A DNA stretch of 64,000 bases from Scenedesmus sp. PABB004 (taxonomy: Eukaryota), in the NCBI GenBank assembly GCA_014905635.1, contig JABVCE010000003.1, positions 1,240,001 to 1,304,000 of the forward strand, in the 5' to 3' direction. A program made the position numbers and the translations under genes. The notes under the pieces are model-generated. The model was not told the origin of the DNA and ran no database searches. It was given only the letters and a program-made list of their open reading frames with translations. Positions 21,166 through 59,229 of this stretch are shown piece after piece. The number at the start of each line of letters is the position of its first letter. Position 1 is the first letter of the stretch.

Positions 21166-21205
<40 letters not shown>

Positions 21206-28848: not shown

Positions 28849-28893
<45 letters not shown>

Positions 28894-30165
28894 AGCGCGC
28901 CGGCGCTGAGCTCGCGCCGCGCGCCCGCACAGGTCAAGGCGAGCCACGCGTGGGTCGCGCTGGAGGGGCTGGACCAGGACGGGCTGTGGGCCTACCTGCA
29001 CCGCGACCACCTCAGCGTTGACCAGAGCTTCCCGCACCTCCAGGTGAGGCAGCGGCCGGCGCGGGCGCAGCGGGCGCAGCAGCGGGCGCGGGCGCGGAGC
29101 GCCGCCGCCCCGCCGCGGCGCGGCCTGCCGCGGTGCCGCGCGGCGGGGGCGGCGGCGCGAGAGCGGGCCCTGGTTTAATTTCCTGCCGGCCGCACCCTCC
29201 ACGGCCGGCCGGAATGATCCCCAGGCGACAGCCCGCGCCGCTCCACGTGCCCGCGCCCGCGCCCCTCCCCTGTCCCCGCGCCCGCCGCACGCCGCTCAAC
29301 CCGCGCCGCGCCGCGCCGCCGCTCGCCCGCCCAGGCGGTGCTGTCGCCCGGCGAGGCGGTGACTGCGATGGTGCTGCGCGCCGAGGAGGGCGGCAGCCGC
29401 ATCGCGCTCTCAACCGCGCACCTCGAGGCCGCGCCGGGCGACATGCTGCGTGACCGGGCTGCCGTGTTTGCCGGCGCGGCGCGCCATGTGGCGCTCGTGC
29501 GGCGGCAGATGAGCCAGGTGCGGCGCCAGTCGCGGGCGGCGGGGCGGCGGCGGCGCGGCCCGCTGGCGGCCGCTGCAGCGCGCCGCGCCCGCGCCCCGCC
29601 GCAGCGCCGCCGCCCCAGCGCGGCCCGCAGCGCACCCACGTGCCCGCCCGCCGCCCCGCCGCCCCGCCAGGCCGACCTGCACTTCAACGTCGCCGTCACG
29701 GTGCCGCCGCCGGCCGCCGACGCGCCCGCGCCCGCGCCGGCGGCGCCGGCCGCGGCGCCGGCCGCGGCGCCGCGCGCCGCGCCGTCCTGGCTGCTGCGCG
29801 GCGCCGCGGCGGCGCAGGAGCTGGAGCCGGCCTTTGCCCTGAGCGGCTACATGCCCGGCCGCGGCCTTGGTGTCGTCATGGCGGCGGCGCTGTGGCCCAG
29901 CCCCGCCGGCGGCGGCTGGGCCGGCGGCGCCGCCGCGGCGGCGCTGTCGTCGCTGGAGGAGCACGCCGCGGAGCAGGGCTGGTGGGCCGAGGGCCCGCTC
30001 GCGTGGCGCGCCGCGGACGAGCGCGAGCAGTGGGCGGCGGAGCTCGCGGCCGCGCCGGCCGCCGCCGAGGCGCCGCGCAGCGCGCCGTCTGACGCGGCCG
30101 TCGACGGCGAGCAGCAGTGGCTGCAGCCGCCGCCGCCGGCGGCCTGGGAGGACGACGCGCCGTGA
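27791..30165 (+). CDS. S1 RNA-binding domain protein, divergent plastid ribosomal protein S1-like
   Basis: Three S1-like repeats (GDTVVGRVI..GYLP; GFIPKSYL..IEEVVPEQRRIVLN; LVRGTVTQVK..LHRDHLS..LSPGEAVTAMVL..RIALSTAHLEAAPGDML) and an R/A/P-rich transit-like N-terminus. Two GC-AG introns. Confidence 0.75.
29097..29233 (+). ncRNA. Intronic box H/ACA snoRNA candidate, copy 1 (variant H box AGAGCG)
   Basis: In the S1-gene intron 29044-29334: hairpin, AGAGCG (29160-29165), hairpin with an internal pocket, ACA (29228-29230). A near-identical copy lies at 58443-58580. Confidence 0.55.
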
Positions 30166-30860
30166 GCTGCGCGCTGTGAGCTGTGTGTACACCACCAAGC
30201 TGCTGTGTTGTCGTCGATGTGCGTTTGTGCGCAGGCGGGTGGCGATGTACAACAAGCTGCAGGACAAGCCAACCTCGTTTGAGGGCTGCAGAGCCCTGGT
30301 AGGGGCAGCCCTCAGGGGCAGCGCGGGTCGCAGGACTGAGCTCGCGGGGCGTGGCGCGCGAGGCTGCGCGAGGCTGCCAGGCCAGTTTTGAGGCGGCGGG
30401 TGGGGAGCGGGGAGGCGGGGGCGCGGTAACGCTGCGTGAGGCTCTGATCGAGGTCAGTGTCGCTGACGGTCGTGCGGGCTGGGGCTGGCGCCGCGACCAG
30501 CGGGCGCACGGCCCGCGTTCCCGAGCGCACGCAGCGGCGCCGCTGCCGCCTGGCTGCGCGGCGGCCCCAGCTGTCGGGCGGCCGGGCCGTGAGCCGGAGC
30601 TGCGGCTCCGGCGCGAGCTGGCGATCTCTGGGGGCGTGCGGGCCAACCGGTGCGGGAGCTGGGCGCGGTGCAAGGGCCTAGCACTGGCCAGCTTCCGAGC
30701 GCCTGCGCCCCTTATCCCGCGGCGGCCGCGCCCGCTCGTTACGCCTCAGCAGCCCGCTGCCCGCCAGCTCCTTGCGCTCTCGCGCTCAGCGGCCCCCGCC
30801 GTTGCGTCCAACCACCAGCACGCGCTGGTGAGGCCCATTGAAGAAGAAGCGAGGAGCAGC

Positions 30861-30986
30861 ATGTCTGACGCCGAGGCCCCCGTGGTGGCGGACGAGGTGG
30901 CGGCGCCCGCGCCGGCCGCGGAGGCCAAGCCGGCCGCCGAGGAGGAGGGCTACGATGAGAGCCTTCTCATCATGATAAAGCGTTAA
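30861..30986 (+). pseudogene. Truncated 5' copy of the PPI1-like gene
   Basis: MSDAEAPVVADEV...YDESLLI is identical to the start at 33563, then reads MIKR* from junction sequence. Confidence 0.8.
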
Positions 30987-31229
30987 GGCCGCGTTCCCGA
31001 GCGCGGCCAGCGGCGCCGCTGCCGGCTGGCCGCGCGCGCGCGGCGGCCCCCGGCGCCCTGGATCTGGCGCCGCGGCGGGCGTGCGCGCCGCGCGTCGGCG
31101 CGAGGCCTGGTCGCTGCGCGCGCGAGCGGCGTGCGCGCCCGCGTGGCGGCGCGGCAGTGCTGTGCGCGGCTGAATTGCGCTGTGGAGCATCGCGCGGGCG
31201 GTGTAGCGCGCTGAGCGCTGAGAGAGATC

Positions 31230-31655
31230 ATGCAAACTGTCATGACAATCGCGCGTCCGCGGCACCAGCCCCGCGGCACTCGACACGCCGCTCCAGCCGC
31301 TCGGCGCCGACGACGCCTCGGATCTGGCCCGCCGAGCCCGCCCGCGCCAGCAGCACCGCCGCCCACCCGCCGCGCGCCCGCCATGCGCCTTACGGCCGCG
31401 TCCGCGCCGGGCGCGAGCGCCCGGCAGCAGCGTCGCGCCGCGCCCGCGGCGCCGCGCGCGGCAGCCGCGCCGACGGCAGCACCGCCGCTGCGGCGGCAGA
31501 CGCCCGCGGCGCCGCCGGCGGAGCTCGCCGACGCGGCGCCGCCTGCGCCGGGCGACACCGTGGTGGGCCGCGTGATCAGCGGTGCGTTTGTGCGCGGGCG
31601 GGCGGTGATGTACAACAAGCTAGGAGGAGGCACAGGACAAGCCAACCTCGTTTGA
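31230..31655 (+). pseudogene. Truncated 5' copy of the S1-domain gene fused to intergenic sequence
   Basis: Same protein sequence as the 27791 ORF up to GDTVVGRVIS, then an unrelated 24-aa tail. Confidence 0.8.
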
Positions 31656-32211
31656 GGACTGCAGAGCCCTGGTAGGGGCAGCGCGGGTCGCAGGACTGTG
31701 CTCGCGGGGCGTGGCGCGCGAGGCTGCCAGGCCAGTTTTGAGGCGGCGGGTGGGGAGCGGGGAGGCGGGGGCGCGGTAACGCTGCGTGAGGCTCTGATCG
31801 AGGTCAGTGTCGCTGACGGTCGTGCGGGCTGGGGCTGGCGCCGCGACCAGCGGGCGCACGGCCCGCGTTCCCGAGCGCACGCAGCGGCGCCGCTGCCGCC
31901 TGGCTGCGCGGCGGCCCCAGCTGTCGGGCGGCCGGGCCGTGAGCCGGAGCTGCGGCTCCGGCGCGAGCTGGCGATCTCTGGGGGCGTGCGGGCCAACCGG
32001 TGCGGGAGCTGGGCGCGGTGCAAGGGCCTAGCACTGGCCAGCTTCCGAGCGCCTGCGCCCCTTATCCCGCGGCGGCCGCGCCCGCTCGTTACGCCTCAGC
32101 AGCCCGCTGCCCGCCAGCTCCTTGCGCTCTCGCGCTCAGCGGCCCCCGCCGTTGCGTCCAACCACCAGCACGCGCTGGTGAGGCCCCATTGAAGAAGAAG
32201 CGAGGAGCAGC

Positions 32212-32337
32212 ATGTCTGACGCCGAGGCCCCCGTGGTGGCGGACGAGGTGGCGGCGCCCGCGCCGGCCGCGGAGGCCAAGCCGGCCGCCGAGGAGGAGGG
32301 CTACGATGAGAGCCTTCTCATCATGATAAAGCGTTAA
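32212..32337 (+). pseudogene. Second truncated 5' copy of the PPI1-like gene
   Basis: Same as 30861-30986, shifted by 1351 bp. Confidence 0.8.
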
Positions 32338-32580
32338 GGCCGCGTTCCCGAGCGCGGCCAGCGGCGCCGCTGCCGGCTGGCCGCGCGCGCGCGGCGGCCC
32401 CCGGCGCCCTGGATCTGGCGCCGCGGCGGGCGTGCGCGCCGCGCGTCGGCGCGAGGCCTGGTCGCTGCGCGCGCGAGCGGCGTGCGCGCCCGCGTGGCGG
32501 CGCGGCAGTGCTGTGCGCGGCTGAATTGCGCTGTGGAGCATCGCGCGGGCGGTGTAGCGCGCTGAGCGCTGAGAGAGATC

Positions 32581-33006
32581 ATGCAAACTGTCATGACAAT
32601 CGCGCGTCCGCGGCACCAGCCCCGCGGCACTCGACACGCCGCTCCAGCCGCTCGGCGCCGACGACGCCTCGGATCTGGCCCGCCGAGCCCGCCCGCGCCA
32701 GCAGCACCGCCGCCCACCCGCCGCGCGCCCGCCATGCGCCTTACGGCCGCGTCCGCGCCGGGCGCGAGCGCCCGGCAGCAGCGTCGCGCCGCGCCCGCGG
32801 CGCCGCGCGCGGCAGCCGCGCCGACGGCAGCACCGCCGCTGCGGCGGCAGACGCCCGCGGCGCCGCCGGCGGAGCTCGCCGACGCGGCGCCGCCTGCGCC
32901 GGGCGACACCGTGGTGGGCCGCGTGATCAGCGGTGCGTTTGTGCGCGGGCGGGCGGTGATGTACAACAAGCTAGGAGGAGGCACAGGACAAGCCAACCTC
33001 GTTTGA
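32581..33006 (+). pseudogene. Second truncated 5' copy of the S1-domain gene
   Basis: Same as 31230-31655, shifted by 1351 bp. Confidence 0.8.
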
Positions 33007-33562
33007 GGACTGCAGAGCCCTGGTAGGGGCAGCGCGGGTCGCAGGACTGTGCTCGCGGGGCGTGGCGCGCGAGGCTGCCAGGCCAGTTTTGAGGCGGCGG
33101 GTGGGGAGCGGGGAGGCGGGGGCGCGGTAACGCTGCGTGAGGCTCTGATCGAGGTCAGTGTCGCTGACGGTCGTGCGGGCCGGGGCTGGCGCCACGACCA
33201 GCGGGCGCACGGCCCGCGTTCCCGAGCGCACGCAGCGGCGCCGCTGCCGCCTGGCTGCGCGGCGGCCCCAGCTGTCGGGCGGCCGGGCCGTGAGCCGGAG
33301 CTGCGGCTCCGGCGCGAGCTGGCGATCTCTGGGGGCGTGCGGGCCAACCGGTGCGGGAGCTGGGCGCGGTGCAAGGGCCTAGCACTGGCCAGCTTCCGAG
33401 CGCCTGCGCCCCTTATCCCGCGGCGGCCGCGCCCGCTCGTTACGCCTCAGCAGCCCGCTGCCCGCCAGCTCCTTGCGCTCTCGCGCTCAGCGGCCCCCGC
33501 CGTTGCGTCCAACCACCAGCACGCGCTGGTGAGGCCCCATTGAAGAAGAAGCGAGGAGCAGC

Positions 33563-36473
33563 ATGTCTGACGCCGAGGCCCCCGTGGTGGCGGACGAGGT
33601 GGCGGCGCCCGCGCCGGCCGCGGAGGCCAAGCCGGCCGCCGAGGAGGAGGGCTACGATGAGAGCCTTCTCATCAAGGTCAAGGGCCGCGTCAAGCGCCCC
33701 GCGCGTCCCGACGACACCGAGAGGTGCGCCTCCGCGCGGGGCCGGGGCGGCACGGCCCGCGGCGCAGCCGGCGCGCGGGGAGGGCCCAACCAATCCGTTC
33801 GCCATCGCCCGCCCGCCCCGGCGGCCACAGGAACATGCAGATCGAGAAGCTGCAGGAGCAGATCAACAAGGCCAGCGACCGCATGAAGGAGATCAAGGCC
33901 ATGCTCGACAACCGCGCGGCGGGCGGCAAGGGCACCTCGCCCGAGCAGCAGGCCGCCCGCGACCGCATCGCGAAGCTCCGCGCCGAGTTCGACGCCGTCC
34001 TGGTGCGGAGCGCGCCGGGCGTTCCGAGGCGCGCCGTGGCGGCGCCGGCGGCACGGCGCGCCGGCCGGGGGCGGGCGGGGAAGGTTGGGCGCCGCCGCGC
34101 CGGTACTGCCCCCGCGCGCGCCCGCCGCGGCCGCCCCCGCGCGCTGCCGAGCGGCCTCCCCGCCGGCGCGCCCCGCCCCGCCCGGCCCGCGCGCGCGCGC
34201 CCGCAGGAGCAGAAGCGCCGCCTGCAGGTCCAGAGCGACGACAAGAAGACCGAGCGCGACAAGCTCTTTGCCGAGCAGCGCGCAATCAAGGACGGCATCC
34301 GCGGCCCCACCAACCTCGCGGTGCGCCTCCGGCCGCGCGCGCACGCCGCGTGCGTGCGCCTTGCAGGACGCGCGCGCGCACGTACGTGCGCCGCGCCCGC
34401 CCCGCCGCCGCCCACGCGCCGCCGCTGCCTGCCCGCCCGCGCGCGCGCGCAGACCATCGAGACCCAGCTGCAGGAGCTGGAGTTCAAGCTCACGCACGAG
34501 TCGCTGACCGCGGCGCAGGAGAAGTCCATGCGCGAGCGCAAGGACCGCATCGAAAAGGACCGCCCCGCGCTCGCGCGCCTCGCGGCGCTGAGCGCCAAGA
34601 TCGACGAGGCCAAGGCCGGCAGCGAGGCCGTGCGCGCGCAGATCACCGCGCTCAACTCCAAGCTCGACGCCCTCAAGGCCGCGCGCGAGGAGGAGCAGGT
34701 CTGCGGCGCGGCCACGCAGCGCGCGGCCGCGCAGCGGGCCGCCCCGCCGCGCGCCGCGCCGCGCGGCCCGCCGAGCGCCGCCGCGCCGCGCCGCGCCGCC
34801 GTCGCAGGGCAAGCTCGCGGCGCAGCGCGCGGCCGAGGCGGAGACGCGCAGCGACGTGCCGGCGATGATCGTTGAGAAGAAGGAGCTGTGGGAGGTCATC
34901 CAGGCGCTGCGCGACAAGCAGCGCGAGATCCGCACCGCGTTCAACGCCAAGTGGGACGAGTTCAAGAAGCAGGACAAGGCCTGGAAGGGCTGGTTCGCGC
35001 AGGAGCGCAAGAAGAGGTGCGGCGCGGCGCGGCGCGGCGGGCACGCGCGGTGCGGCGCGGTTCAGCTAGCAGCGCGGCGGCGGGGCGCGGCCGACGCCCG
35101 CCCCGTGCCGCGCCGCGGCCGCAGGAACGAGTCGCGCAAGCAGGAGTGGGAGGAGCGCCAGGCGGCGCGCAAGGCGCGCGACGCGGAGCACCGGCCCGCC
35201 AAGTTTGAGAAGGAGGTGCGTTTGCGAAGGAGGGCCGGCAGCCTGGCCGGGCACACGCGGCAGCGCCGGCAGCGGGCAGCAGGCAGCTGCGTCTGGCCGC
35301 GCCGCCGCCGCCCGCTCAGCCGCGCCCCCGCGCCCCTGCCCCCGCGCGCCGCGCCGCCGCTGCGCCCGCAGGTGTACACGTGCGAGCAGGTGCTGTCCTA
35401 CCTGCGCCAGTTTGTGGTCGAGGCCAAGAAGGGCCCCGAGGAGGTGCGCGAGCTCGAGGCGCCCGCGCCGGGCATGAAGCTGATGTCCAAGGCGCGCGGC
35501 GAGAGCGAGGCCGACGCGCTCTACAGCGGCATGGGCGGCAAGAAGGGCCGCGGGGCGCGCAAGGCGCAGGAGCGCGCCGCCAAGGCGCCCGACGCCGGCA
35601 AGGTGCGGGCGCGGGCGCGGCCACGCGGCGGGCGGGCGGGCGGGCGGGGGCCGCGCGCGGGAGCCCGTGCCCGCGCGCGCGCGCAGCGGGAGCCCCGCCC
35701 ACGCCCCTGCCCGCGCTCCCGCTGCGCGCTGCGCGCCGCGCGCCGCCGCCGCGCAGGCGCTGCCGCGCGTGCTGCCGCTGGAGACGCTCAAGACGTTCAT
35801 GGCGCTCGGCCTGGAGGCGCCCAAGAGCAACGACGACGTGCCGGCCGCGATCGAGGCGGTGGAGGCCAAGAAGAAGGAGTACGAGGAGAAGCGCGACAAG
35901 GCGGCGCTTGAGCCGCCGAGCGAGGAGGAGGAGGCCGAGCCCGAGGCCAAGGAGGGCGAGGAGGCCAAGGAGGCCAAGGACGGCGAGGAGGCGGAGGAGG
36001 CGAAGGACGAGGAGGAGAAGGAGGCGGAGGAGGAGGAGGAGAAGGGTGAGGGGCGCCGCGCGCCGGCACGGCAGCCCGCCCGCCCAGCGCCGCAGCCCGC
36101 CCGCGCGCGCGCGCCTGACGCGCCCCGCGCCCGCCCGCCCCGCCCGCCGCGCAGAGGAGCCGGCCGCCGCCAAGGCGGAGGCCAACGGCGACGCGCCCAA
36201 GGCGGAGGCCAACGGCGGCGCCGCGACCGCCAACGGCGGCGCCGCCGCCAAGGAGGAGCCCGCGGCCGACGGCGCCGAGGCGACCAAGGACGGTGCGCCA
36301 GCGGCTGCCTGCCCGGCGTGGCGCTGGCGCAGCACGCTGCCGCGCGACCGTGCCGCGCGGCCGCAGCGACCGCTGGCCGCTGACGCCGCCGCCGCTGCCG
36401 CCGCCGCGCAGGCCTGGGCGTGAAGCTGCGCGTCACTGACGACGGCGAGGTCAACATGGACGTCTCTGTGTGA
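33563..36473 (+). CDS. Proton pump-interactor 1 / BFR1-like coiled-coil protein, about 10 exons
   Basis: Long K/E-rich coiled coil with RPARPD, IETQLQELEFKLTHESLTAAQEKSM, FEKEVYTCEQVLSYL and LETLKTFMALGLEAP..IEAVEAKKKEY, ending VNMDVSV*. Family call is from recalled similarity. Confidence 0.7.
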
Positions 36474-36821
36474 GGAGGCCCAATGCACCAGCGTTGGGTG
36501 GGCCGGGCTGACGGCGCCGAGCGCGCGCCGGCGGCGGCGCCGCCGCCGCCGCGGCGCGCCGCGGGCGCCAGCTGCGCCGAGCGCCGGCCGCGCGGATTGC
36601 GCGCGGCGCGGCGGCCGCGGCGCGCGCGCCTTGTGTGCGCGCCCCGCGCGCTGCGCACCCAGCAGCATTGGTCGATCGGTGCGGTCTTTTGTGTCGGGGC
36701 CTCGGCGCGCGCCCGGCGGGCAAAGTTCTCTTTCTGGCTGCAGGATGCGATCACCGGAGGCCCAGCACTGGGCGCGCTCTGCGCCGGCCGCAGCGGCTCG
36801 GCTGCGCCGGCGGCGGCGGTG

Positions 36822-36849
36822 TGTAATCGAGCGCGCGTGATCGTTTACA
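36822..36849. terminator. Opposing chlorophyte UGUAA polyadenylation signals of the convergent PPI1-like and FKBP genes
   Basis: TGTAA at 36822-36826 (+) and TTACA at 36845-36849 (TGTAA on the minus strand). Confidence 0.6.
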
Positions 36850-37020
36850 CCAGGGATCACATCACAGCGCGCGCGCGCGCAGGTCCGCACCACCAGCCGG
36901 CGCCCGCTCCCGCTCCCGCCGACGCGAGCGCGCCGCGCCAGCGCGACAGCGTCGCGGCGGCCGGGCCAGGCGCGGCGCGCGCGCATCAGTCAGCGCCAGC
37001 GCGCCGCGTCGCGTTCATCA

Positions 37021-37924
37021 TCAGTGGTCGTCAATCTTGACCAGCTCGGTGTCAAAGATGAGCGTGGCGCCGCCCGGGATGGTCGGCGGCGCGCCGCTCT
37101 CGCCGTAGCCGAGGTGGGGCGGGATCTTGAGCTTCCGCTTCTCGCCCACGCTGCGCGGCGGGAGGGGGAGGGAGAGGGCGAGGGGGCGGGCGGGCGCAGC
37201 GCGTTTCAGCGCCGTGCCCGCCACACGCTGCCCCGCGTGCGCACGCGCGCCCGGGCGCCCCCGCCGCGCGGCCCCGCGCGGCGGCGGCGGCGCACCACAT
37301 GCCGCTGATGCCCTGGTCCCAGCCCTTGATGACGCGCCCCGCGCCCTGGCGGGAGGAGGAGGCGGCGGAGCAGGAGAAAGGTGAGGGCGCGGCGCGCGCG
37401 CCCGGCCGGCGGGGCGCGCCGCGCCGGCGGGGCGCCGCGCCCCCGCCCAGCGCGGCAGCCGCCCGCCACTCACGAGTTCGAACACGATCGGGTCGTTGCG
37501 GTCGAGAGAGCTGTCAAACTTGGTGCCGTCCGTGAGCTTGCCCTGCGAGCGCGCGCAGGGGGCGCGGCGCGTGAGGGACAGCAAGGCGCGCGGCTGCGGG
37601 CGCACCGGTGCCGACAAGGCCGCCGGCGCCGCGCGGGCGCGCCGCCGCCCCCACCGTGTAGTGGACGTGCACCGTGTCGCCGGGCTTGGCCTTGCGGGGG
37701 CAGGACTTGGGCTTGAACTGCGGAGCGGCAGCGGCGGCAGCGGCGAGAGCGGTTGGCGCCCGCCGGCGCGCCCGGGCGCCCGATCGCGCCCGCGCGGCGC
37801 GGGGGCTCGCCTTGACGCCGATCTGGAGCTGCGTCACGTCCTTCTCCTTGGCGGCGCACGCGGCGACCGCCGCGAGCAGGACGAGCGCGGCGAGCAGCGC
37901 GCTGCCGGGCGTGCGGCGCGCCAT
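37021..37924 (-). CDS. FKBP-type peptidyl-prolyl isomerase with signal peptide (FKBP15/FKBP2-like), 5 exons
   Basis: Signal peptide [83 protein letters not shown]. Confidence 0.93.
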
Positions 37925-40135: not shown

Positions 40136-40232
<97 letters not shown>

Positions 40233-41691: not shown

Positions 41692-42467
41692 GGCGCCGCG
41701 CGCCGCGCGCCGTCACGGGGCGGGGAGCCCCTGCGCGGTGCCGCCCGGTGGCGGTGGGGGCGCAGGGCATTGGTTCGCTGTCATTGGGGTTCAGGGTTAG
41801 CTTGGTTTGCTGTCATGCATTGGTCTGAGTCTCACGCCCGCGTGTCTCAACGCACCCTGCCGGACGCGCCCGTGGCGCGCTGCACCTTGTTCGTTCCATC
41901 GTGGCCCCGGACGGGGCTCGCCGACCCTGCCCACTTCTGGCGCGCCCGCGCTCGCGTGCGCCGCGCCCCGAACCGCCGCTCGGGGGGCCCTGAGCGGCTG
42001 TGTGTCACACGCGCCCTCTGATACTTCTTTTGTGTTTCTGTGTTTCTGTGTCTGCCGGTTTGGGCGTCAAGCGTGTCGGCCTCAGCTCTCGGATCGCGCG
42101 CGTGGCGCCGCCCACACTCACCATTATGGCTCCGCTCCCCCCGCCCTGCAACCGCGCAACCGCGCGCCGCATCGCTTGAGAATGCCGCGGCTCCTCGCCG
42201 CACGTGGACCTCGGCGCGACGCCTGCTGTGCCGCCTGCTGTGCCGCCGCTCGGCGCGGCGGCAAACTGTGTGGTGTGGTGTGGTATCGGGGCTCTCGCAC
42301 GTTTGAGAGTGCGCCGTGTGTTTTCTGTTCTTCTGGTGTGTGGTGGCTGTGGCCCCGCGCGTGCGTGCGCCAGCGCGCATGCGGTCTCCCTGCTTGCAAC
42401 CATGCGCGGTACAGCGCAGCCGTCTGCACGCGCGCGGCCCGACCGTGCAGACGCCCCGCGCGCACGC

Positions 42468-44541: not shown

Positions 44542-44666
44542 ATGCTTGTCGCGGCGGCGCGCGGCGCGCGTGCGTGCGGGCGTGGCGCGCCGCTGGAGGG
44601 CCTCCGTCGCGTGCATGCCTCCGTCGGTGTGGCATCTGACGGCCCCGCGGAGCAGCGGCAGCAGCC

Positions 44667-44734
<68 letters not shown>

Positions 44735-46452
44735 CGTTCGCGATGGCGCCGGGCGGGCTGCTGCACGTCGTCTGCACCGCGGCGGGGACGAGCGTGGAAG
44801 TGACCAACGGCGCCGAGGACGCGGTGGCGCTGCGCGCCGAGGGCGGCGCGGCGTTCTCGACGCAGCAGCTGCCCGGCGGCCGCGTCGTCGGTGCGGCGGC
44901 GCGCGGCGGCGCGAGGCGTGGCCCTGGCCGCGTGCGCCGTGGCGCGGCGATAGCCGCTGCAGCGCCACGCGCGGCCCACTCAGCGGCGGCTGCCCGCGCG
45001 CGCAGACGCCGTCGAGGCGGCGGCGGCAGGGGCGCGCGGCCTCGGGCGAGGCCCGGCTCGCCGCGCAGATGCCGAGCCGCTTCTGCGGCCTCCACGCGTC
45101 CACGGCGGGCGGCCGGCTGACGCTCGCGGCGGTGCAGGAGGCGGAGCTCTCCGCGGTGACGCAGGGCGGCAGCGTGGAGGTGCGGCGCGCCAAGACCTCC
45201 AACGCAGCCATCAACACGGCGCGCGCCGACGACCCGGGCGCGCGGGGCGGCGACATCACGGTGCGGCGGCGCACGGCGCGGCCGCGTGCGGCGCCGCGCC
45301 CGCGCCCGCGCAGCGACCGAGCCCGCGCCTGCGAACAAGCCCGCGCGCCGCGCAGGTCGGCGAGCTGAGCGCGTCGCACCTGCGCCTGCGCTCCGGCGGG
45401 GGGCGCATCGACGTGCAGCGCATGTTTGGCCTGGACGCCGAGGCGCTGAGCGGCGGCGGCGCGCTGCGCCTGGGCGCGCTGTACGGCGTGAAGGCCCACC
45501 TCGCGAGCGGCGGCGGCCCGCTGAGTGTCGGGCACATGGCGTGCAGCGGGCTCGCGCAGCTCGAGAGCGGCGGCGGGCGGCTCGCCGTCGACGGCCTGGA
45601 GGGCAGCGCGAGCCTGCTGTCCAGCGGCGGCGACATCAAGGTGCGTGCGTGTTGAGGCGTGTGCGCGAGAGCGCGAGCGCGAGCGCCGCGGCGGCGCCGC
45701 ACGGCACCCTGGGCGGCGCCAACGCCACCACGCGCGCCGCCGCCGCCGGCGCAGCTGCACCTGCACGAGCAGTTTGGGCGCGTGTTTGTCGACAGCGCCG
45801 GCGGCGCCGTCGAGGCGTGGGTGAGCCCTGCCGCGGAGGTTGAGCTGCAGGTCGCCGGCGGCGGCGGCGTCGACCTGGACCCGGCGCTGCGGGTGCGGGC
45901 CGGCGGCGCACACGGCGCGGGAAGGGAGGAGGGGGAGGGGGGCAGTGGCAGGGCGCCGACGCCAGGGGGGGCGGCCGCCGACGCCCGGCGCGCGCGGGCT
46001 GCGCGCGCCGCCGCCCGCAGGTCACGGGGGAGCTGGGGCGCGTGTCGCTCACGGGCGTGACCGGCGCCAGCGGCGGCCGCAGCGCCGCCGCCAGCAGCCA
46101 CGCGGCGCGCGCGGCGCAGGCGGCGCAGCAGCTGGCCGCGCAGGCGGCCGCGGCGGCGGGGCCGGGGCTGGCGGCGGGCGGCGGCAGCCTCAACGCCAGC
46201 CGCCTGCACCGCGCGTCGGGCGAGGTGGCGCAGTTTGCCGCCGCTGCCGCGGCCGGCGAGGGGCAAGCGGGCCGCAGCCAGGCCCAGCAGGCGCAGCAGC
46301 CAGCAGCGGGGTGTGGCGGCGGCGGCTGCGGCGGCGGCCGGCCCGTGCGGCAGCTGGTCATCAACGCCGGCGGGGGGCGCGTGACGCTGCGGGCGATGGG
46401 CTGGATGGACGGCGTCCGCGCCAAGCTCGCGGCGCGCAGCGCACCGTCGTGA
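44542..46452 (+). CDS. DUF4097/FAM185A-like beta-strand repeat protein with polyQ
   Basis: Repeated SGGG-x-I/L beta units (STAGGRL, TQGGSV, RSGGGRI, ASGGGPL, ESGGGRL, SSGGDI, DSAGGAV) preceded by MPSRFCGL. Presequence-like N-terminus. Confidence 0.65.
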
Positions 46453-46641
46453 CGGCGATAACCCTGCGGCGGTGCGCGAGCCGCCCGCAGGAACAGCGTG
46501 AAGCGGGGCGCTGCGCTTGCGACGCCAGCCCCCACGTGCGCCGCGCCGCTCGCGGCGCGCGCTCCCGCAGCGACAGCCACACGTGGCCGCGCGCTGCCGC
46601 CGCCCGCCGCTGCAGCTCGCCTGCGCTCGCGGGCGATCGTC

Positions 46642-47670: not shown

Positions 47671-47701
<31 letters not shown>

Positions 47702-49966: not shown

Positions 49967-50411
49967 GCCGCCATGGTCCGCAGTGCGCCGCGGCGGCACG
50001 CGTCGCTGGCAATTGCACCGAGCTTGGGGCACGGTGTGTGGGAGGGAGTGAGGGGCGACGCGCGCGGAGCGCATTGCAATTGCAAGCCCGGGCCGCCGCC
50101 GCCGCGTGGGCAGGGGCAGCGCCACGCCGGGCCCGCCATCTCAGTCCCAAGCCTGTCAGTCCAACGCCGCCGCCGCGCCTGCGGCGAGTGCGCGCCAGGC
50201 GTGCAATTGTCAACGCGCGCGGGGGCGCAGTCAAGGTCGATGTTGATGGCCCCCTGCCCTCTTCTTGCAGAGCAGTCAAGGTGCCGCGCACCCCGCGTCT
50301 TGTGTGTTGTGTGTGTTGGCGAGTGATGCGACCAGGCTCCCACACGCCTGGCAAAACCGCGTGCCGCCATGCGCCGACTGCCCCGTGCATGCCCCCCCCC
50401 CTCCCCCGTGC

Positions 50412-53108
50412 TCAGTCGAGCCGCTGCGCCGCCTGGCCGCGCGGCACGCGGCGGCGCTTGGGCGCGGGCGCGCCGCCGTCGTCCCCGCTGCCGTCGCCGC
50501 CCTTGACAATGCTGGCGTACAGCACGTGCCGCTCGTCGCCGCGGCGCTCAAACACAATCGTGTCGCCTGGCGCACAGCGCGCGGCACGGCGCGGTGCGAG
50601 TGAGCGTGCGGCGCAGTGCAGGGCGGCGCGCCGCTCACACCGCCGCGGCGGGCGCGCGTGCGAGCGCGGCGCAGCGCGGCGCGGCGCACCGACGTCGACG
50701 CCGTGCGTGCGCACAAAGTCGCGCCAGCCGCTCGTGAGGCGGAGGTGCTTCTGCGCGTTGCACGACACGCCCTCGTACTGCACACGCTGGCGCTGCCCGC
50801 TGACCGGCTCGACGACCCACACGTCCTCCTTCCACAGCTGCTCGTAGCTGCTGCCGGGCTTGCCGCCGCCGGCGGAGGCCGCCGCGCCGTCGCCGCGCGG
50901 CGGCGGGGCGGCGCGGAGGTCGTGGTAGGGCAGCAGGTGCTCCGCCATGGGCTGCGTGATGTTCAGGCGCTTGAGGTACGTCTTGCACGTTATCACGCGC
51001 GCATACCTGTGACGCCAGGCGGCGGGGCGTGGCGAGTGGGCGGCGGCGGCGTGGGTTGGCGGCGGCGCGGGTTGGCGGCGGCGGGGCCGCCGAGCGCAGC
51101 GTGCACGCTCCTCCCGCAGCGCAGCGCGCCCCCCTTCCCCCGCGCTCACCTCGCGACCTCCCCCGGGTTGGAGCTGGGCTGCGCCTGCAGCGCGGCGTCG
51201 CCGCCGTCGCCCTGCGGCGCCGCGCCGAGCGCGAGCGCGGGCCAGCCGCCGCCCGGCTGGCCGGGCGGCAGCGCGCCCCACTGCAGCGCGCTGTAGCAGT
51301 CTGCCGGCATCGCAAACGGCCCGCCGCCCGCGACCGCGGCGGCGGCCGCCGCTGCCGCCGCGGCCGTGGGCGTGCCGGCGTCGTCAAGCTTTGCAAACTG
51401 CAGCGCCGCGTACTGCCGGACGCCGGCCTCGGCCAGCAGCTCCTGGTTGACCTGGCCCAGCAGGCCGTCCAGCGTGGCCAGGCCCGGGAGGCTGGCCACG
51501 GGCGGCCCGGCAAACAGGTCCCCCGGCGCACCGACCGGCGCGCGCGGCGCGCCCAGCGCGCCGACCAGGTGCGGCAGCTCCAGCTGGCGCAGCGCAAAGG
51601 CGGAGGCGTGCCCGCCCGCCGCCGGCTGCGGGGCGGCCGGCAGCGCCTCCGGCTGCTGCGGCTGCTGCTGCTGCTGCGGGACCTGCGGCTGCTGCTGCTG
51701 CTGCTGCTGCTGCACCTGCTGCTGCACCTGCTGCTGCTGCTGCTGCTGCAGCGCGGCGGCAAACGGGTCTGGCTCCCGCTGGCTGAACAGCGCGGCTGCG
51801 GCGGCGGCAGCGCGATAGCTGAACGCAGGCCGCCCGAGGCCCCCGCCGCCGCCCCAGACCGGCGGCAGCGGCTCGTCGCCCGCTGCCGCGGCGGGCACCT
51901 CGCGGCGCGTGAACGGCGTCAGCGGCGACGCCTGCTGCTGCGCCGCCGGCTGCTCCGCCGCCGCCTGCGCCGCCGGCGCCGCCTGCGGCTGCTGCTTGGC
52001 CGCCGCGCTTGCCGGCGCGGGCGCCTGTATGTGTGCCGCGAACGCGGCGAGCTCGCTGGGCTTGATCCCGAGCAGGTCTGAGCTCTGCTCCATGAACGAC
52101 AGGCTCGGCAGCCCGCTCAGCGTGAGTGGAAGGTCCGCGTCCTGCACGCGCGGGGCGCGGCGGCACGAGGTGGGCGGCGCGCGGCGAGCGCGGCGCGGCG
52201 CGCGGGCGGGCACGGCCAGCCACGCGGGCGCGCGTCGCCGCCGTCCAGCTGCCGCGGCGGCGCACCTTGAGGCTGTCCAGCATGCCGAAATCGCGCAGGC
52301 AGGCCCTGAGGCTGCCGCTGCCGAGCTTGCCCGCGCCCGCCGCAGCGGGCGCGGAGGGCAGCGAGCCGGAGCCCGGCGGCAGCGCGAGGTCGGGCAGGCT
52401 GTCGCTGCGCGGCAGCCCCGCGGTGAGCAGCCCGCTCTCCGCGCGCGCCGCCTCGCACAGCAGCGCGTCGGCGAGGCCGCCGCTGCTGCTGCGGCAGATG
52501 CCGCTCGCGAGGCGCAGCGCGGCGCCGCCGGCGCCCGCGCGTACCGCGCCCGCCGCCGCCGCGAGCGCGCGCGCCTGGTGCGTCACGCTGCTGGGGCGCG
52601 AGACCATGCCGCTCGGCGTGGGCAGCAGGCAGGGCGGCGCGCCGCTCGGCGCGCCGCCGCCGAGCTCGAGCGCCGCCTGCGGCGCGTCGGCGCCCTCCTC
52701 CAGCGCCGGCGGTGTCGGCAGCAGCCGCGTCTGCGACAGCGCCGCAAACGCGGTCGCCGCGGCGGGCTCGGGGGCGGCCTCGGGCCCGCGGTGCTGCCCG
52801 CCCGACGACGCGGCGCTGCACGACTGCGCGGCGGCGCCCGCCTGCTGCGGCGGCGCCGCGTGCTCCGCCGCCGACGGCGCCGGTGGCGCCGCCATGCCGT
52901 CGACCAGCGACAGCAGCGCCGCCTGCGCCGCGGGCGCGATGCCCTCCAGGCGGGTGATGCCGTGCACCAGCGCGGCGCGCGCCGCGTCGTTCAGCACGGG
53001 CGCCGCGCCGGCGCCGGCGTCGCCCCCGGCGCGGCGCGCCACGCTCGGCTGGCGGAGCTCCGCCAGCAGCTGCGGGTTGTCCGCAACCGTGAAGGGGCTG
53101 GCGTCCAT
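50412..53108 (-). CDS. B3 DNA-binding domain transcription factor (C-terminal B3), 4 exons
   Basis: KRLNITQPMAEHLLP ... LTSGWRDFVRTHGVDVGDTIVFER matches the B3 consensus (RL.IP...AE..LP; GW..FV....L..GD...F). The N-terminal part is long and disordered. Confidence 0.8.
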
Positions 53109-53860
53109 GGTGGTGCGGGGGGGGGCGCGCTGACGGCCGCTGAGCGGCGGGCCGCAGCACTCCGGCAGCGGCGGCAGGGGCGGTGGAAGCAGCGGCAGCG
53201 GCGATGGCAGGGCGGTCGCTGCGGCGTGCCCGACGCACGCCGGAGGCTGAGAGGGCTGAAGGCGGCACGCCCGGGGCTGAGAGGGGCCCCTGCGTGTGGC
53301 GTGAAGCCGATGGCGGAGCCGGGAACGAAGCTGGCTCCTCCGCGTCCGCGCAGGAGCGCGGGGGCCCCGCGTCGGCGTGTTCGGAGGACGACGTGCGCTG
53401 GAGCGGACCTGGCCTGGGCGACGGAGGCGCTGAGCGCCGTTGCAATCTGTCGGCGGCGGTGCGGCGGCGAATTGGGCGCTTTTGGGCTCCTCACCTTCCG
53501 CGGCTCCAGGCTCCCTGGTCCCAACGTGCGAGCTTCGGCCGATCCCCGAGCGAGGGCGCGTGCGGCGTCGTCCAGGCGCGCTGCGCGCGGCGCCCTGGGC
53601 AGCGCGGCACTCGCGCAGGACCGAGTCCTGCGTGCGCGGCCCTGCTTGCACGCCCCGCGGCAACCGGCGACCGTCACGACGGCACGCCTCCTGACGTGGC
53701 AGCCAGCGCTGGGGCCCCAGCCCACGCGCCCACCGTTCGAGCGCGCGCGCCCTGCACGCTGAGCCCGCCGCCAGCCTCGCACAGCCAGGGTGCGGCAATG
53801 CTCAATTGCCACGCGCCAACTGCATGCGGGACACCCCTCGCTCGCAGGCGGCGGCCGCGC

Positions 53861-55282
53861 TCAAGGGCCCTGCTGCGCGCCGCTCCCGCTCCCGCTCGCG
53901 CCGCTCGCGCCGGCCCGCCAGCGCAGCTGCCGCCGCGTCACCCGGCCGCCGCTCGCGCCCGCGTCCGCCGCTGCTGCGCCCTCCGCGGGGCCGCCGCCGC
54001 CGTCGCCGCCCGCCGCGCCGCCGCGCGCGCCGCGCGCGAGGCGCGGCGGCGTGATCTCCGGCCCCGCCGCGCCGCCGCCGCCGGCGGCGAGGGCGGCCGC
54101 GCCGGCGGCGGCGGCCGCGAGCATCGGCGCCGCGACGTTGACGCCGACGTCGACGTCCGCGGCCACCGCCGCCGCGGCCGCGCCGAGCGGGCTCGCCACG
54201 GCCGCGCGCTTCGCCGCGCCGCCGCCCGCCTTCTTCTTGCCCGCCGACGCGCCGCGCTTGCTGTTGGCCGGCGGCAGCTCGAGCCGCCACATCAGGTAGC
54301 TGCGGGCGGGCGGCGGGGCGCGCGAGGGCGCGGCGCCGGGCTGGGCGGCGGCGGGCGCGCGCGGCGCTGCTCACACGTGTGCGCCGCGCGACGGTCCCCG
54401 AGCCCAGCGGCGGCGACGGCGGCAGGCGCACCTGCCGACGCTGCGATAGGGCCGCCACGCCGCGGTCAGGGCCTCCATCTCAGCGGGGCCGGGCAGCGCC
54501 GCGCCCAGGCCGCACAGGTGCGCCACGCCCTGCGCGCGCGGGCGGCGCCCGTCGGCGGCGGCCGTCGGCCGCGGCCGGCGCGGCGGCGGCCGTCGGCCGC
54601 GGCCGGCGCGGCGCCGTCGCGCGGCCGTGGCGGCGGCGGGCGGTGGCCGTGGCGCGGCACCCTGGGACAGGACCCTGTCTCGCCTTGCGGACGCCGAGGT
54701 CGCCGACGGGCAGGACGTCGGGGCGGCCGAGGTGGAAGAGCGCAAACATGTCGACCGTCCAGGGGCCGATGCCGCGCACGCGCGTCAGCGCGCCGCGCAG
54801 CGCCTCGTCGTCGGCGGCGGTGAGCAGACCGTCCGAGAGGGAGCCGTCGGCGAACGCGGCCGCGAGCGACTGCACGTACTCCGCTTTGCGCTGCGAGAGC
54901 CCGCACGCGCGCAGCGCGTCGGGCGCCACGCCGAGCACGGCGGCGGGCGAGAGCGCCGACTCGTCGGGCACGCCGCAGGCCATGAGGAAGCGGGCGTAGA
55001 TCGCGGCTGCGGCTGTGCCGGCAAGCTGCTGGTACAGAATGCTCTTGCATAGGCTGGTGAAGCACGACGTCGACTTGGCCAGCAGCCGCTCCGGCGGGCC
55101 GTGCGTCTGCGCGCCGCGCGCGCGCGCGCAGCTCCGGTGATGGTCGAGGGCCGGCGCAGCGGGGGGCGCCGCGGGCGGCGCCGCACCTCCAGCAGCGTCG
55201 CGAGGCGCGGGTCGGCGACGGCGAGGTGGTCGCACGCCGACTGGAGGTCGGCCAGGCTCGCAAAGCTGCCTGGAGCCGCCAT
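53861..55282 (-). CDS. DNA-3-methyladenine glycosylase (AlkA/Mag1, HhH-GPD family)
   Basis: SILYQQL, GLSQRKAEY, HhH motif VRGIGPWTVDMF, DVLPVGDLGVRK and WRPYRS. The start may lie further upstream. Confidence 0.88.
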
Positions 55283-55605
55283 GACAGCGAGCCGCTGGCC
55301 GGCGCCGCGTCCGCCGCTGTCGCGCGGGACCCGCTGCTGCTGCTGCCGCGCGCCGCGCAGCCACGCGCGGGCGGCGGCAAGCGCGGCCAGCCCGGCGACA
55401 GGCGCGCGCTGGTTCTGGGTCTGTGGCAGGAGCGAGGAGGCGCAGCGCGGCGCACGGCGCGCGGGGCAGCGGCGAGCGACGGCGTGCGCTGCTGCTGCCA
55501 CGCTGGGCGCGCGAGCGGGCGGCGGCGCTGGGGGCGCGTCCGTCACCGCTGCCCGCTAACTCTCCGCTCTCCGCTCCGCGCCCGCTCTCTCAACCTCGCA
55601 CACAG

Positions 55606-57020
55606 CTACCCGCGCCACGGCTGCACCTTGACGCGCCGCGCGCTCTTGGCGGGGCCCTGCGACTCCACCTCGCCCTCGGCCTCCGCGATCGGCTCCAGCG
55701 ACGTGCCGCCGCGCGCGCGCTTGGAGCCGCCGACGGAGCCTGCGCTCGCGCCGCTGACGGCCGACGTGCCGGAGCGGCTGCGCGTGGCGCGCCCGCCGGC
55801 GGCCGCGGGCGGGCCGGCCCCGCCGCCCCGCTCGGCGCGGCGCCAGCGGACGCGGACGAGGCGCGGCGGGTGCGCGGGCGGCTGCTCACGCCGCCGTCTG
55901 CGCCGCCGTCCTGGGATGCCGAGCGCGCGGCGCCGCCGCTGCGCGTGCTGCGCCGCCGCTCGCCCCCGCTTGGCGCCAGGCTGGCGCTGGGTGCCGGCGC
56001 CGCGCTGGGCGCTCGGCGCGGGCGCAGGCGCAGCGCGGCGTCGCTGTCTGCCTCTGCCGCCGGTGCCGGGCCGCCGTCCTCGTGGATGGGCGGCAGCACC
56101 GCCGCCGGCGCGCGCTGCGGCGCGCCGCGGCCGCCACCGCCGCCGCCGCCGCCCGCGCTGGCCGGAACTCCAGGCTCCGACTCGCCCGCGTCCTCGTTGT
56201 GTGCGTCGCCCGGCGGCTCGGCGCTGTGCTGCGCGGCCGCAGGGCTGGCGCGCCCGGGCAGCAGCGCGCGCAGCGCCTCGGCGTCGCGCAGAAGCTCCTC
56301 ATGCGTCGCCAGCAGCGCGGCCAGCTCGTCCTCCGCCGCCACGACCTGGTCCCATGCCGCCGCCGCCGCCGCCGCCTGCGCCTCAGCCGCCTTTGCCGCC
56401 TGCGCCGCCGTCGCCGCCTGCGCGCTCGCCGCCACGTGCTCCTGCTCCTGCCGCCGCGCCTCCGCGGCAGCGGCCTCCGCCCGCAGGCCCGCCAGCTCCG
56501 CCTGCGCCGCCCCGGCCTCAGCCCGCAGGCCTGCCAGCTCCGCCCGCGCCGCCTCGGCCTCAGCCCGCAGGCCTGCCAGCTCCGCCCGCGCCGCCGCGCT
56601 GCCGCTCCGCGCGCCGTCCGCCTCGTCCTGCGCCGCGCGTGCCTCCGCCTCGAGGGCGGCACGGCGCGCCGCGGCCGCGGCCTCCGCCGCCGCGCGCTGC
56701 TGCTCCACCTCTGTGAGCGAGGCCTGCGCGGCCCGCACCGCCGCCTGCTGCGTGCCCAGCTGCGAGGCGCGGCGGGCGCAGCGCGCGTCCGTCGCGGGGG
56801 CCCTGTTGTGCTTGCACGGTGCCCCCGCGCGCGCCGCCGCACCTCGCGCCCCGCCGCCAGCGTGGCGGCTCGCGCGTCTGCGAGCGCGGCGCGCTGCGCG
56901 GCGAGCTCGCCGTCCGCCTGTGCGACCTGCTGCAGCGCAGCGCGGAGCGCCGCCTGCGCCTTGTCGACGTTGAGCTGCAGCTGGTCCAGCTTGATGCGGC
57001 GCTGACGCTCCGCGACGTCC

Positions 57021-57057
<37 letters not shown>

Positions 57058-57196
57058 GCTTGGGCGCCTGGTTGGCGACTCGCAGGAGCCCCTCGAGCTG
57101 CGCGACGCGCTGCTCGCACGCCGCCGCCGCGGCGAACACGCGCGCCATGAATTCGTCGAGCCCCTCGCCCGGCGCCAGCAGCTGCCGCCAGTCCAT
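55606..57196 (-). CDS. Uncharacterised Ala-rich coiled-coil protein
   Basis: MDWRQLL..., heptad-like region with three AELAGLRAEA repeats, one intron (~56842-56758). The end at TAG 55608-55606 assumes a 1-nt indel at 55826-55829. Confidence 0.65.
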
Positions 57197-57759
57197 CGCG
57201 CAGGCCCGCCCCACAGCGCGCCGCTCAGCGCCGCGCAGGACCCCAGCGCGCGTCGCGCTGTCGGCCGGGCGCGGCGCCCGGCGGCGCGGTGAGGGCGCGC
57301 TCGTCCGTGATGAAGGGCGGAGCCGCTGTGAGTCAGCGGCGTGAAGAGCCACGTGCGCCGATCGCGGGGCGGTGCCGCAACCGGGAGCAGCGGCGGCGGT
57401 CGGCGCCGCACCGTGCCTCGCACCGTGCGCCGATGGACGCGCGCCGTGCCTGGTTGCGCTCGATGAGTCCGCCCCCGCTTGCTGGCGTGAACTGGCGCCC
57501 TGCGCAGGAGCCCGCGCCGGCGCCGGCAGCGCTGCTGCGCGCGCGCGGCGGCGCGCGCTTGACTGCGGCGCAACCCTGACGAGTGGCGCGGCCCAGCGTG
57601 TGCTCGAACGGGTCGACCACGCGGAGGGGTGCGGCGGCAGCGCTGACCGATCGCGGCGGCGCGGCGTCGTCACGGCCGGCGGTTCAAGGCGGTCGCCGCC
57701 GGCGCTGCGCGCTTGGGCGATCGGCACGTTTCGCCCGCGACGCAGGTCGCCGCCGCAGG

Positions 57760-59229
57760 TCAGCTGTCGTCGTTGTCGTCGTCCGAGCCGCTGCCGTAGC
57801 TGCCTAACAAGCTCTGCAGCCCGGCGGCGGCCGGCTGCGCCGCTGGCTGCTGCTGCTGCCGCGCCTGCTGCTGCCCCCGCCGGCGGCGTCGAGCCGCGGC
57901 CGCTTGCTCGGCCCCCGCCATCGCTGCCAGCTGCTGCTCCGGCCGCTCCGCCTGCCGCTGCCCCTGCGCCTGCTGCGCCCTTGGGCGTGACCTTGAGGAT
58001 CGGCCGCAGCGCCGGCTTGGCCGCCTTGGCGGCGGCGGCGGCAGCGGGCGGCGCCTTGGCCGCGCCGCCCGAGCCGCGGCGCCCGAGCGCGGCGCCGGCG
58101 CTGCCGGGGCCCGGCCCCGCCGCCGCGTCGAGCCCTGCCTCCGCCGCCGCCGCGAGCGCGGCCGCCTCGGCCTCCGCCTCGGCCGCCGCCTTGGCCTCGG
58201 CCGCCGCGGCGACGGCGGCACGGTACTCCTCCAGCGCCGCCGCCTCGTCCTGCTGCTGCTCGCGCAGCTGGCGCGCCTCCTGCTCCGCCAGGCTGTCCAG
58301 GAACTCCAGCTCGTCCGGCTCCAGCGGCCGGTTCTTGCCTGCGGCGCGGCGCGGCGCGGCGGCAGCGCAGGCGTCGCGCGCGGGGGGCGGCCGCCGGGTC
58401 AGCGCCTGCACGGGGCACAGCGCGCACGCGGCGCGTGCGCGCGGCTGTCGCCTGGGGATCATTCCGGCCGGCCGTGGAGGGGTGCGGCCGGCAGGAAATT
58501 AAGCCAGGGCCTGCTGTCGCGCCGCCGCCCCCGCCGCGCGGCACCGCGGCAGGCCGCGCCGCGGCGGGGCGGCGGCGCTCCGCGCCCGCGCCCGCTGCGC
58601 CCGCACCCCCGCCCGCCGCCGTGCCCAGCTCGCCCCGCCCCTCCGCCCTCTCCGGACCCTCTCACCCGTCTTCATCTGCTTCCACTGCGCGTCGAACGCG
58701 TCCTGCTTGGCCGCCTTGCGCTCGGCCAGGATCTCGGCGAGTGGCTTGTCGGCCGAGATGGTGCCGTCGTCGACATTCAGCCCCCGCGCCGCCTTGATCT
58801 CCTCCAGCTGCGCGCGCGTGCGGACAGCGGCGGCGGCGGCGGCGGCGTGAGCTGGCGCCGCTGCGGCCGCCGCGCGCGGGGCGCTGTTCGACGCAGCGCG
58901 CCCACGCCGCCGGCGCCGACGGCGGCGGCGGCGGCGCACCTCTGACTCGGTGACGAAGCGCTTGGCGCCCATGGTGGCCTTGAGCTGCTCCATCGGGTCC
59001 AGCGCCTTGTGCTGCGAGGGGAACACGCTCGCCGCGTCGCGGCCGAGCACCGCCTCCACGTCGTACACCTCCGCCGGCCTGCGGCGAGGAGCGCGCGGGC
59101 GGCGGCGGCGGCCGCCGTCGTCGGCGCCGCGGCGGCGCCGTGCCGCAGCCGCGGCGGCCGCCGGAGCGGGATCAACAGCAGCAGCACTCACTGTTCCAGC
59201 CGGACCATCTCCACCGGCCGCCGCTCCAT
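57760..59229 (-). CDS. PSME3IP1: FAM192A / NIP30 / PSME3-interacting protein homologue
   Basis: RFVTESELEEIK, KPLAEILAERKAAKQDAFD and NRPLEPDELEFLD, with C-terminus LLGSYGSGSDDD. The last exon needs homopolymer indel correction. Confidence 0.8.
58443..58580 (-). ncRNA. Intronic box H/ACA snoRNA candidate, copy 2 (canonical H box ACAGCA)
   Basis: In the FAM192A intron (~58665-58339), sense to the host gene. H box at 58517-58512, ACA at 58448-58446. Near-identical to 29097-29233. Confidence 0.65.

Follow-up and report, generated by a model that had tools for sequence, protein, structure and literature searches.

In this work, we describe a block of 155–156 nucleotides (nt) that occurs twice in a stretch of the genome of Scenedesmus sp. 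PABB004 (assembly GCA_014905635.1, contig JABVCE010000003.1, positions 1,240,001 to 1,304,000), once in an intron of a tentatively S1-like gene (copy 1) and once in an intron of FAM192A (copy 2). In the following, "the window" means this whole stretch of 64,000 nt. The two copies are 29 kb apart and inverted relative to each other, and they probably represent a recently duplicated pair of intronic box H/ACA small nucleolar RNA (snoRNA) genes. This reading is supported by the discreteness of the duplication, the fold, the boxes, the 14-nt spacing, the end of the similarity three nt after the ACA (ACA+3), the sense orientation, the uniqueness of the architecture in the window, and a sub-threshold match in Rfam; these in silico points agree with an original prediction for this DNA, which had proposed that a snoRNA was copied from one intron to another and which is thereby supported in part. 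Copy 2 appears to be intact, and copy 1, whose H box is damaged, may be weaker or dying.

The duplicated block and its limits

When the two copies are aligned, 152 of 156 columns are identical, and the differences are three substitutions and one 1-nt indel in a loop, which corresponds to a divergence of 2.6%. The block pair is the longest inverted repeat that a repeat search found within the window. Its global alignment score is 147, compared with 24.5 ± 3.6 for dinucleotide shuffles, and none of 500 shuffles equalled it. The parts of the introns outside the block are not significantly alike: the observed score of the upstream parts was equalled by 45 of 500 shuffles and that of the downstream parts by 21 of 500, and among other window segments of the type (CGCCG)n..CAG, 4/89 and 11/89 score at least as high as the downstream tails. 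A blastn search stretches a low-identity alignment (84.5%) across 29052-29327 and 58619-58343; because both the shuffles and the other segments reach the scores of the flanks, we attribute this extension to GC-rich low complexity. The near-identity of the element in introns of two genes and the chance-level similarity of the flanks agree with what had been claimed originally.

The block begins 35 nt inside intron 1 and 67 nt inside intron 2, and it ends 101 nt and 104 nt, respectively, before the 3' splice sites. The tails that follow it (29234-29334 and 58339-58442) are of nearly equal length and C-rich, and the parts that precede it are rich in G; when copy 1 is folded, its G-rich leader is found paired with its C-rich tail. 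We found no third copy in the 64 kb: a blastn search with the 3' hairpin gives no other match longer than 13 nt, and a covariance model derived from both copies, run with the filters off, has as its next match the antisense of copy 2 (31.2 bits), with all others at or below 25 bits. The absence of terminal inverted repeats (TIRs), target-site duplications (TSDs), and poly(A) that had been reported was borne out: the longest terminal inverted match at the block ends is only 4 nt, the longest direct repeats in the flanks are 4–5 nt (under the control mean of 5.9), and there are 1–2 A within the 40 nt after the block.

The H/ACA-like anatomy

In both minimum free energy (MFE) and ensemble folds, the final 135–136 nt of each block take the form hairpin-hinge-hairpin-tail, with hairpins of 60 and 57–58 nt and a hinge that is single-stranded. 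The 3' hairpin has a lower stem of 5 base pairs (bp), CCUGG/CCAGG, then an internal loop of 6+6 nt, (C/U)UUAAU + UGAUCC, and an upper stem of 4+8 bp with one U/C mismatch, TTCC-GCCGGCCG/CGGCCGGC-GGAA, closed by an apical loop of 9–10 nt. The bases of the pocket are unpaired with a probability of 0.88–1.0 in the ensembles of both copies. The ACA lies 2 nt past the lower stem, and the distance from the top of the pocket to the ACA is 14 nt in both copies. All the motifs listed in the original prediction, namely, the hinge motifs ACAGCA and AGAGCG, the lower stem CCTGG/CCAGG, the pocket (C/T)TTAAT + TGATCC, TTCC..GGAA, and ACA+3, are found at their predicted places. Mature H/ACA RNAs end at ACA+3, and the similarity between the copies, which had been said to stop shortly after the ACA, ends exactly at ACA+3. 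The suggestion that copy 1 is possibly decaying is also consistent with what we see, as its H box is without the last conserved A and it gives no H/ACA match in Rfam.

The distribution of differences and of base composition points to constraint. None of the four differences between the copies touches a paired position: the hinge has two, and the outermost base of the pocket and the apical loop have one each. By our own count, 70 of the 156 positions are unpaired, which gives a chance of about 0.04 that all four would be so. In these introns, whose G+C content is 85%, the pocket strands are the only clusters of A/T. Only four runs of at least seven A/T occur in the window and two of them are these pockets, and the sole all-A/T 8-mer in the 64 kb is copy 1's TTTAATTT. 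A/T-rich pockets in such introns fit selection on a guide.

Under the H/ACA reading, the two blocks would be paralogous genes for a box H/ACA snoRNA of about 136 nt, possibly with a 5' leader of 20 nt. The RNA would be transcribed within the host pre-mRNA and, after splicing and debranching, exonucleases would trim the intron until they meet the region that the H/ACA proteins shield: Cbf5/dyskerin, Nop10, Nhp2, and Gar1 would bind both hairpins as well as the two boxes, H and ACA. The role of the 5' hairpin would be purely structural and the sole guide pocket would be in the 3' hairpin, where the two 6-nt strands would pair with the target and position a U, 14 nt from the ACA, to be converted to pseudouridine. 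A recent copying event between the introns, which lie 29 kb apart, would have given rise to the pair in its inverted orientation. The sequence itself shows the orientation, the boxes and their distances, the fold, and a duplication with sharp limits; that the snoRNA would be expressed, bound by these proteins, and active on a target is inferred.

The host introns

The window has a G+C content of 78.9% and contains no N; genes with GT..AG introns are present, and long CAG/CTG and GCC repeats top its repeat lists. Exons and introns were assigned by the G+C content of codon positions, together with the GT..AG boundaries and, for FAM192A, the continuity of the Pfam match. In the exons flanking both introns, the G+C content is 0.44–0.56 at the second codon position and 0.91–0.98 at the third, and in the introns it is flat (0.82–0.89). 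Both blocks lie within GT..AG introns, and on the evidence of Pfam and codon-position composition both are sense to their host genes, as had been claimed.

The exon 5' of intron 2 corresponds to positions 26-63 of PF10187 (FAM192A_Fyv6_N), and the exon 3' of it to positions 68-104. Because the flanking exons match consecutive stretches of this family, we conclude that intron 2 is real and that its host gene is FAM192A. The original prediction had named an S1 gene as the other host, and for that gene there is one match to PF00575 (E 8e-4), below the cut-off and about 900 nt upstream of intron 1; the exons flanking intron 1, searched alone, have no match in Pfam. In short, the FAM192A assignment stands with both exons, and the S1 identity of the host of copy 1 is weak. 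When intron 1 is translated through, two stop codons appear, and they are located in the AT-rich pocket strands. The coordinates of the introns, the blocks, and their parts are collected in Table 1.

Table 1. Introns, blocks, and H/ACA-like parts of the two copies, in positions of the window.
Feature	Position	Strand	Description
Host intron 1	29044..29334	+	291 nt, phase 0, in the tentatively S1-like gene; GT 29044-45, AG 29333-34; flanking frames open with coding GC periodicity
Copy 1 block	29079..29233	+	155 nt: 20-nt leader, then 135-nt H/ACA-like unit; covariance model 144.3 bits
Copy 1 5' hairpin	29099..29158	+	26 bp, G+C only, without pocket; MFE folds
Copy 1 hinge motif	29160..29165	+	AGAGCG, H box minus its last A; fails ANANNA
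Copy 1 3' hairpin	29169..29225	+	lower stem 29169-73/29221-25; upper stem 29180-92/29202-14; folds
Copy 1 pocket strands	29174-79, 29215-20	+	TTTAAT and TGATCC; distance to ACA 14; passes the 3'-hairpin filter
Copy 1 ACA box	29228..29230	+	similarity stops 3 nt on, at 29233
Host intron 2	58339..58665	-	327 nt, phase 1, in FAM192A; GT 58665-64, AG 58340-39
Copy 2 block	58443..58598	-	156 nt: 20-nt leader, then 136-nt H/ACA-like unit; covariance model 146.7 bits
Copy 2 5' hairpin	58519..58578	-	26 bp, without pocket; folds
Copy 2 H box	58512..58517	-	ACAGCA, fits ANANNA; 1 nt past the 5' hairpin
Copy 2 3' hairpin	58451..58508	-	lower stem 58508-04/58455-51; upper stem with one U/C mismatch; 10-nt loop
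Copy 2 pocket strands	58503-498, 58461-56	-	CTTAAT and TGATCC; folds
Copy 2 ACA box	58446..58448	-	similarity stops 3 nt on, at 58443

The gene that hosts copy 1 also contains near-identical tandem segments (27602-33682, plus strand). The segment 27602-28141 corresponds to 31042-31580 and to 32393-32931 with 99.4% identity, and 30219-32331 corresponds to 31582-33682 with 97.9% identity, at a period of about 1351–1363 nt. The 2.1 kb at 28141-30219, which contain the intron of copy 1, are missing from the later tandem units. Either the gene has undergone a recent duplication within itself, or the segments reflect a problem of the assembly. Elsewhere in the window, Pfam recognizes a subtilase domain (PF00082, 1-807, plus strand, E 1.4e-30) and the TIM-barrel domain of an alpha-N-acetylglucosaminidase (PF05089, 38691-39839, plus strand, E 1.3e-79).

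Specificity of the H/ACA likeness

The window was passed through a filter of three steps. The first accepts an ACA that follows, at a distance of 14–16 from the pocket, a hairpin whose lower stem has 4 bp or more, whose two-sided loop has 4–10 nt, and whose upper stem has 6 bp or more; the second looks for ANANNA no more than 14 nt before this 3' hairpin, and the third for a 5' hairpin of at least 10 bp. There are 693 ACA trinucleotides on the two strands of the window, and eight passed the step for the 3' hairpin, the pocket, and the distance: the two copies, three sites from one tandem repeat, and three others. The full filter was passed by copy 2 alone of the 693 sites. The three others, at 42411, 47119, and 50782 on the plus strand, have no H box upstream and are probably chance hairpins. 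A simple scan of the window for C/D-box snoRNAs found none.

A relaxed Rfam search with 241 nt around copy 2 returned SNORA76 (RF00598), with the whole model (1-132 of 132) aligned to 58578-58444 at 22.6 bits and E 0.054. Because the score is below the gathering threshold and the guide strands are unrelated, copy 2 is not regarded as a member of SNORA76; on the sequence, the match is a likeness of architecture and not of family. At gathering thresholds the whole window gives no Rfam match, SNORA76 included, and among its 53 matches at E ≤ 10 the H/ACA families are absent. A control region of 10 kb gave one H/ACA match, to a single hairpin, at 18.5 bits. All 53 relaxed matches (isrG, many microRNA families, and Afu_254) come from repeats of the CAG/CTG type and are composition artefacts; long repeats of this type lie within large open frames at 19262-25230, 44598-44765, 51619-51780, and 59700-59860.

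The search for targets and relatives

From the pocket, the canonical target would read 5'-GGAUCA-U-N-AUUAA(G/A)-3'. By Rfam, the organism's own ribosomal RNA (rRNA) is absent from the window, and the scan was therefore made on 30,133 nt of small-subunit (SSU), 5.8S, and large-subunit (LSU) rRNA of other eukaryotes, annotated by Rfam and taken from contaminant contigs in prokaryote assemblies. Among the contigs filed as bacterial or archaeal, at least 51 (L001-L051) carry a eukaryotic 18S 3' end, which reflects eukaryotic contamination, and some of them hold complete eukaryotic rDNA units (e.g., L003, L027, and L031). The best pairing of the pocket in these heterologous rRNAs is 10/12 for copy 2 and 11/12 for copy 1, and 55 of 100 shuffled pockets reach at least 11. 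The comparison with rRNA that had been suggested for the target, made in this way on other eukaryotes, thus gives matches at chance level only. When the upper stem was opened by 1–5 pairs, starting from its weak 4-bp part, there was still no conserved site in the heterologous rRNAs. The LSU motif for which a partial, out-of-register pairing had been noted occurs in 3/3 complete LSU genes of other eukaryotes, and the register was described correctly: its half-sites suit different targets, U5 with 4 pairs and U7 with 5, which lie two bases apart.

A weaker lead comes from the 3' end of the 18S rRNA. Here, the 3' guide strand pairs 6/6 with the conserved GGAUCA, with the U of ..AUU.. at the target position, a match that is expected by chance for a 6-mer. 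In 4/49 loci of other organisms, the AUUGAA that follows would complete a 12/12 site for the pocket of copy 1. The RNA might dock across the junction of the 18S rRNA and the first internal transcribed spacer (ITS1), instead of guiding a classical rRNA pseudouridine. This idea remains a lead because the 6-mer match is expected by chance and the rRNA loci are those of other organisms.

Relatives of the element were sought with sequence patterns. The relaxed pattern (guide strands plus ACA) has no match in viral contigs, and its four matches in metagenome contigs were rejected as chance, as none of them folds as a pocketed hairpin. The most similar site (L054, 1501-1561, minus strand) shares the guide strands and eight further bases with the element; it is the start of a bacterial open reading frame whose first residues are MIPRH, and a 9-bp palindrome stands in front of it. 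Rfam gives no H/ACA match for this site, which is a coincidence and not a homologue.

Weighing the explanations

Several observations weigh against the snoRNA reading. In the 30,133 nt of heterologous rRNA, no canonical target stood above the shuffled-pocket controls, and the strict pattern of the element has no match in metagenome contigs and none in genome contigs. Atypically, the 5' hairpin consists of a GC stem of 26 bp that no pocket interrupts, and the shared block keeps 20 nt upstream of this hairpin; mature H/ACA RNAs usually keep fewer than 20 nt there. The SNORA76 score of copy 2, 22.6 bits, compares with a gathering threshold of 37 bits and a composition bias of 26.1, and the relaxed Rfam search on copy 1 gives no H/ACA match. 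The H/ACA filter was devised after the element had already been seen, which somewhat weakens its result. The folding-energy z-scores of the copies (-0.9 and -2.35) are unremarkable for their composition; because everything folds at 80% G+C, folding energy is uninformative here. Finally, two copies within one 64-kb window could also mean a high-copy family.

This last point leads to the main rival, which is that the block belongs to a dispersed repeat family, i.e., a non-autonomous mobile element or, comparable to the mammalian snoRNA retrogenes, a snoRNA-derived retroposon that carries or mimics the H/ACA fold and was inserted twice into pre-existing introns, neither insertion necessarily being a working guide. 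Two copies within 29 kb, inverted, with sharp limits and unrelated flanks, are improbable for a randomly placed family of two, and this suggests either a local duplication or many copies. The scan of heterologous rRNAs yielded no target, copy 1 already has a degenerate H box, and H/ACA-derived retrogenes are known, with 49% of those in human being intronic according to the cited part of Luo and Li (PMC1802619). However, neither TIRs, TSDs, nor poly(A) mark the copies, the 64 kb contain no third copy or diverged relic, both copies are sense (a chance of 1 in 4 under random insertion), their differences avoid the stems, and chance would not easily produce the complete H/ACA architecture. On balance, we regard the dispersed repeat as unlikely. 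A decidedly less likely idea is that the block acts as a selfish H/ACA unit resident in introns, a snoRNA-like element that spreads among them in the sense orientation, with the end of the mature RNA as its 3' limit; because there is neither poly(A) nor a TSD, its route would be unlike the L1-type retroposition of mammalian snoRNA retrogenes.

Two other explanations account for less of what is seen. If the block were a structured intronic element unrelated to small nucleolar ribonucleoproteins (snoRNPs), such as the precursor of a small RNA with a long hairpin or a splicing-regulatory fold, its H/ACA likeness would be a coincidence in a genome where everything folds. The near-perfect 26-bp hairpin of its 5' part, the unremarkable z-scores, and weak matches to microRNA precursors on copy 1 in relaxed Rfam searches (E 7–8) would suit such an element, but the ACA at the end of the similarity, the 14-nt spacing, the H box, and the open A/U-rich internal loop kept in an intron of 85% G+C would all go unexplained, and we consider it very unlikely. 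The least probable explanation, which we hold to be extremely doubtful, is that a transposable element of the Introner type made both introns and that the block is its core. The same sequence does stand in the sense orientation in introns of unrelated genes, the 84.5% blastn alignment reaches to within 4–8 nt of three of the four intron ends, the tails after the block are alike in length (101 and 104 nt), and a very high G+C content and a lack of TIRs or TSDs can occur in Introner families, as described in the cited part of PMC9860276. That part also defines Introners by a similarity that starts no more than 10 intronic bases from both boundaries in both introns (PMC9860276). The significant similarity of our pair is, however, interior, at the distances from the splice sites given above, and the scores of the flanks do not exceed those of other intron tails in the window. 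The blastn alignment leaves the first 46 nt of intron 2 uncovered, and it approaches the other boundaries only through low complexity. On these flank statistics, whole-intron homology was rejected.

Comparison with known systems

The features that the pair shares with box H/ACA snoRNAs are the two hairpins, the ANANNA hinge box (in copy 2), the ACA near the predicted 3' end, the pocket 14 nt from the ACA, the predicted length of about 136 nt, and the intronic sense location. It differs from them in that its 5' hairpin has no pocket, its stems are extremely GC-rich, and no target was found in heterologous rRNAs. It also resembles the orphan snoRNAs, which look canonical and have no predicted target in rRNA or small nuclear RNA; the difference is that the orphan status here is relative to the rRNAs of other organisms.

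Intronic snoRNAs are the rule in animals. As stated in the cited part of PMC7671301, most snoRNAs of plants and Chlamydomonas belong to multigene families made by duplication, 72 of the 131 snoRNAs of Ostreococcus tauri are intronic and 17 of the 131 are orphans, and it is common for snoRNAs of algae and plants to be intronic, duplicated, or orphan. The mobility of snoRNAs between introns of unrelated hosts has been documented under the name of "constrained drift" in the part of Hoeppner and Poole (2012) considered here (PMC3511168). Like such mobile or duplicated intronic snoRNAs, our pair occupies introns of unrelated hosts and its members differ at few positions; the difference is that the copy here is only 29 kb away, inverted, and in a genome of 79% G+C.

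Mammalian snoRNA retrogenes have A-tails and target-site duplications. Those of the H/ACA type (snoRTs) are described as made by the L1 machinery in the cited part of Luo and Li, 2006 (PMC1802619). Our copies are likewise delimited by the snoRNA sequence, and snoRTs too are often intronic and in some cases have decayed boxes, whereas here there is neither an A-tail nor a TSD and there are 20 extra nt on the 5' side. Introners have in common with the pair a similar sequence, in the sense orientation, in introns of unrelated genes, and they too can be GC-rich and without TIRs or TSDs; in contrast to the interior sub-portion seen here, their similarity must reach both splice boundaries.

What the pair would mean

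The proposed pair is an ordinary kind of snoRNA gene duplication, and it does not overturn current views. Duplicated, mobile, and orphan snoRNAs are already well known, and the points of interest are modest. If the snoRNA reading is true, a pair of H/ACA snoRNA genes would be added for a eukaryote with very GC-rich DNA, and this pair would illustrate, cleanly and at a young stage, the move of a snoRNA from one host intron into another. The copy would end at the mature 3' end without the scars of retroposition, which would bear on how snoRNAs relocate. The pair of an intact and a broken H box would also be a natural test of the role of this box in the accumulation of the RNA. In genomes of this kind, an A/U-rich pocket inside introns of 85% G+C may serve as a simple marker with which more guide RNAs can be found.

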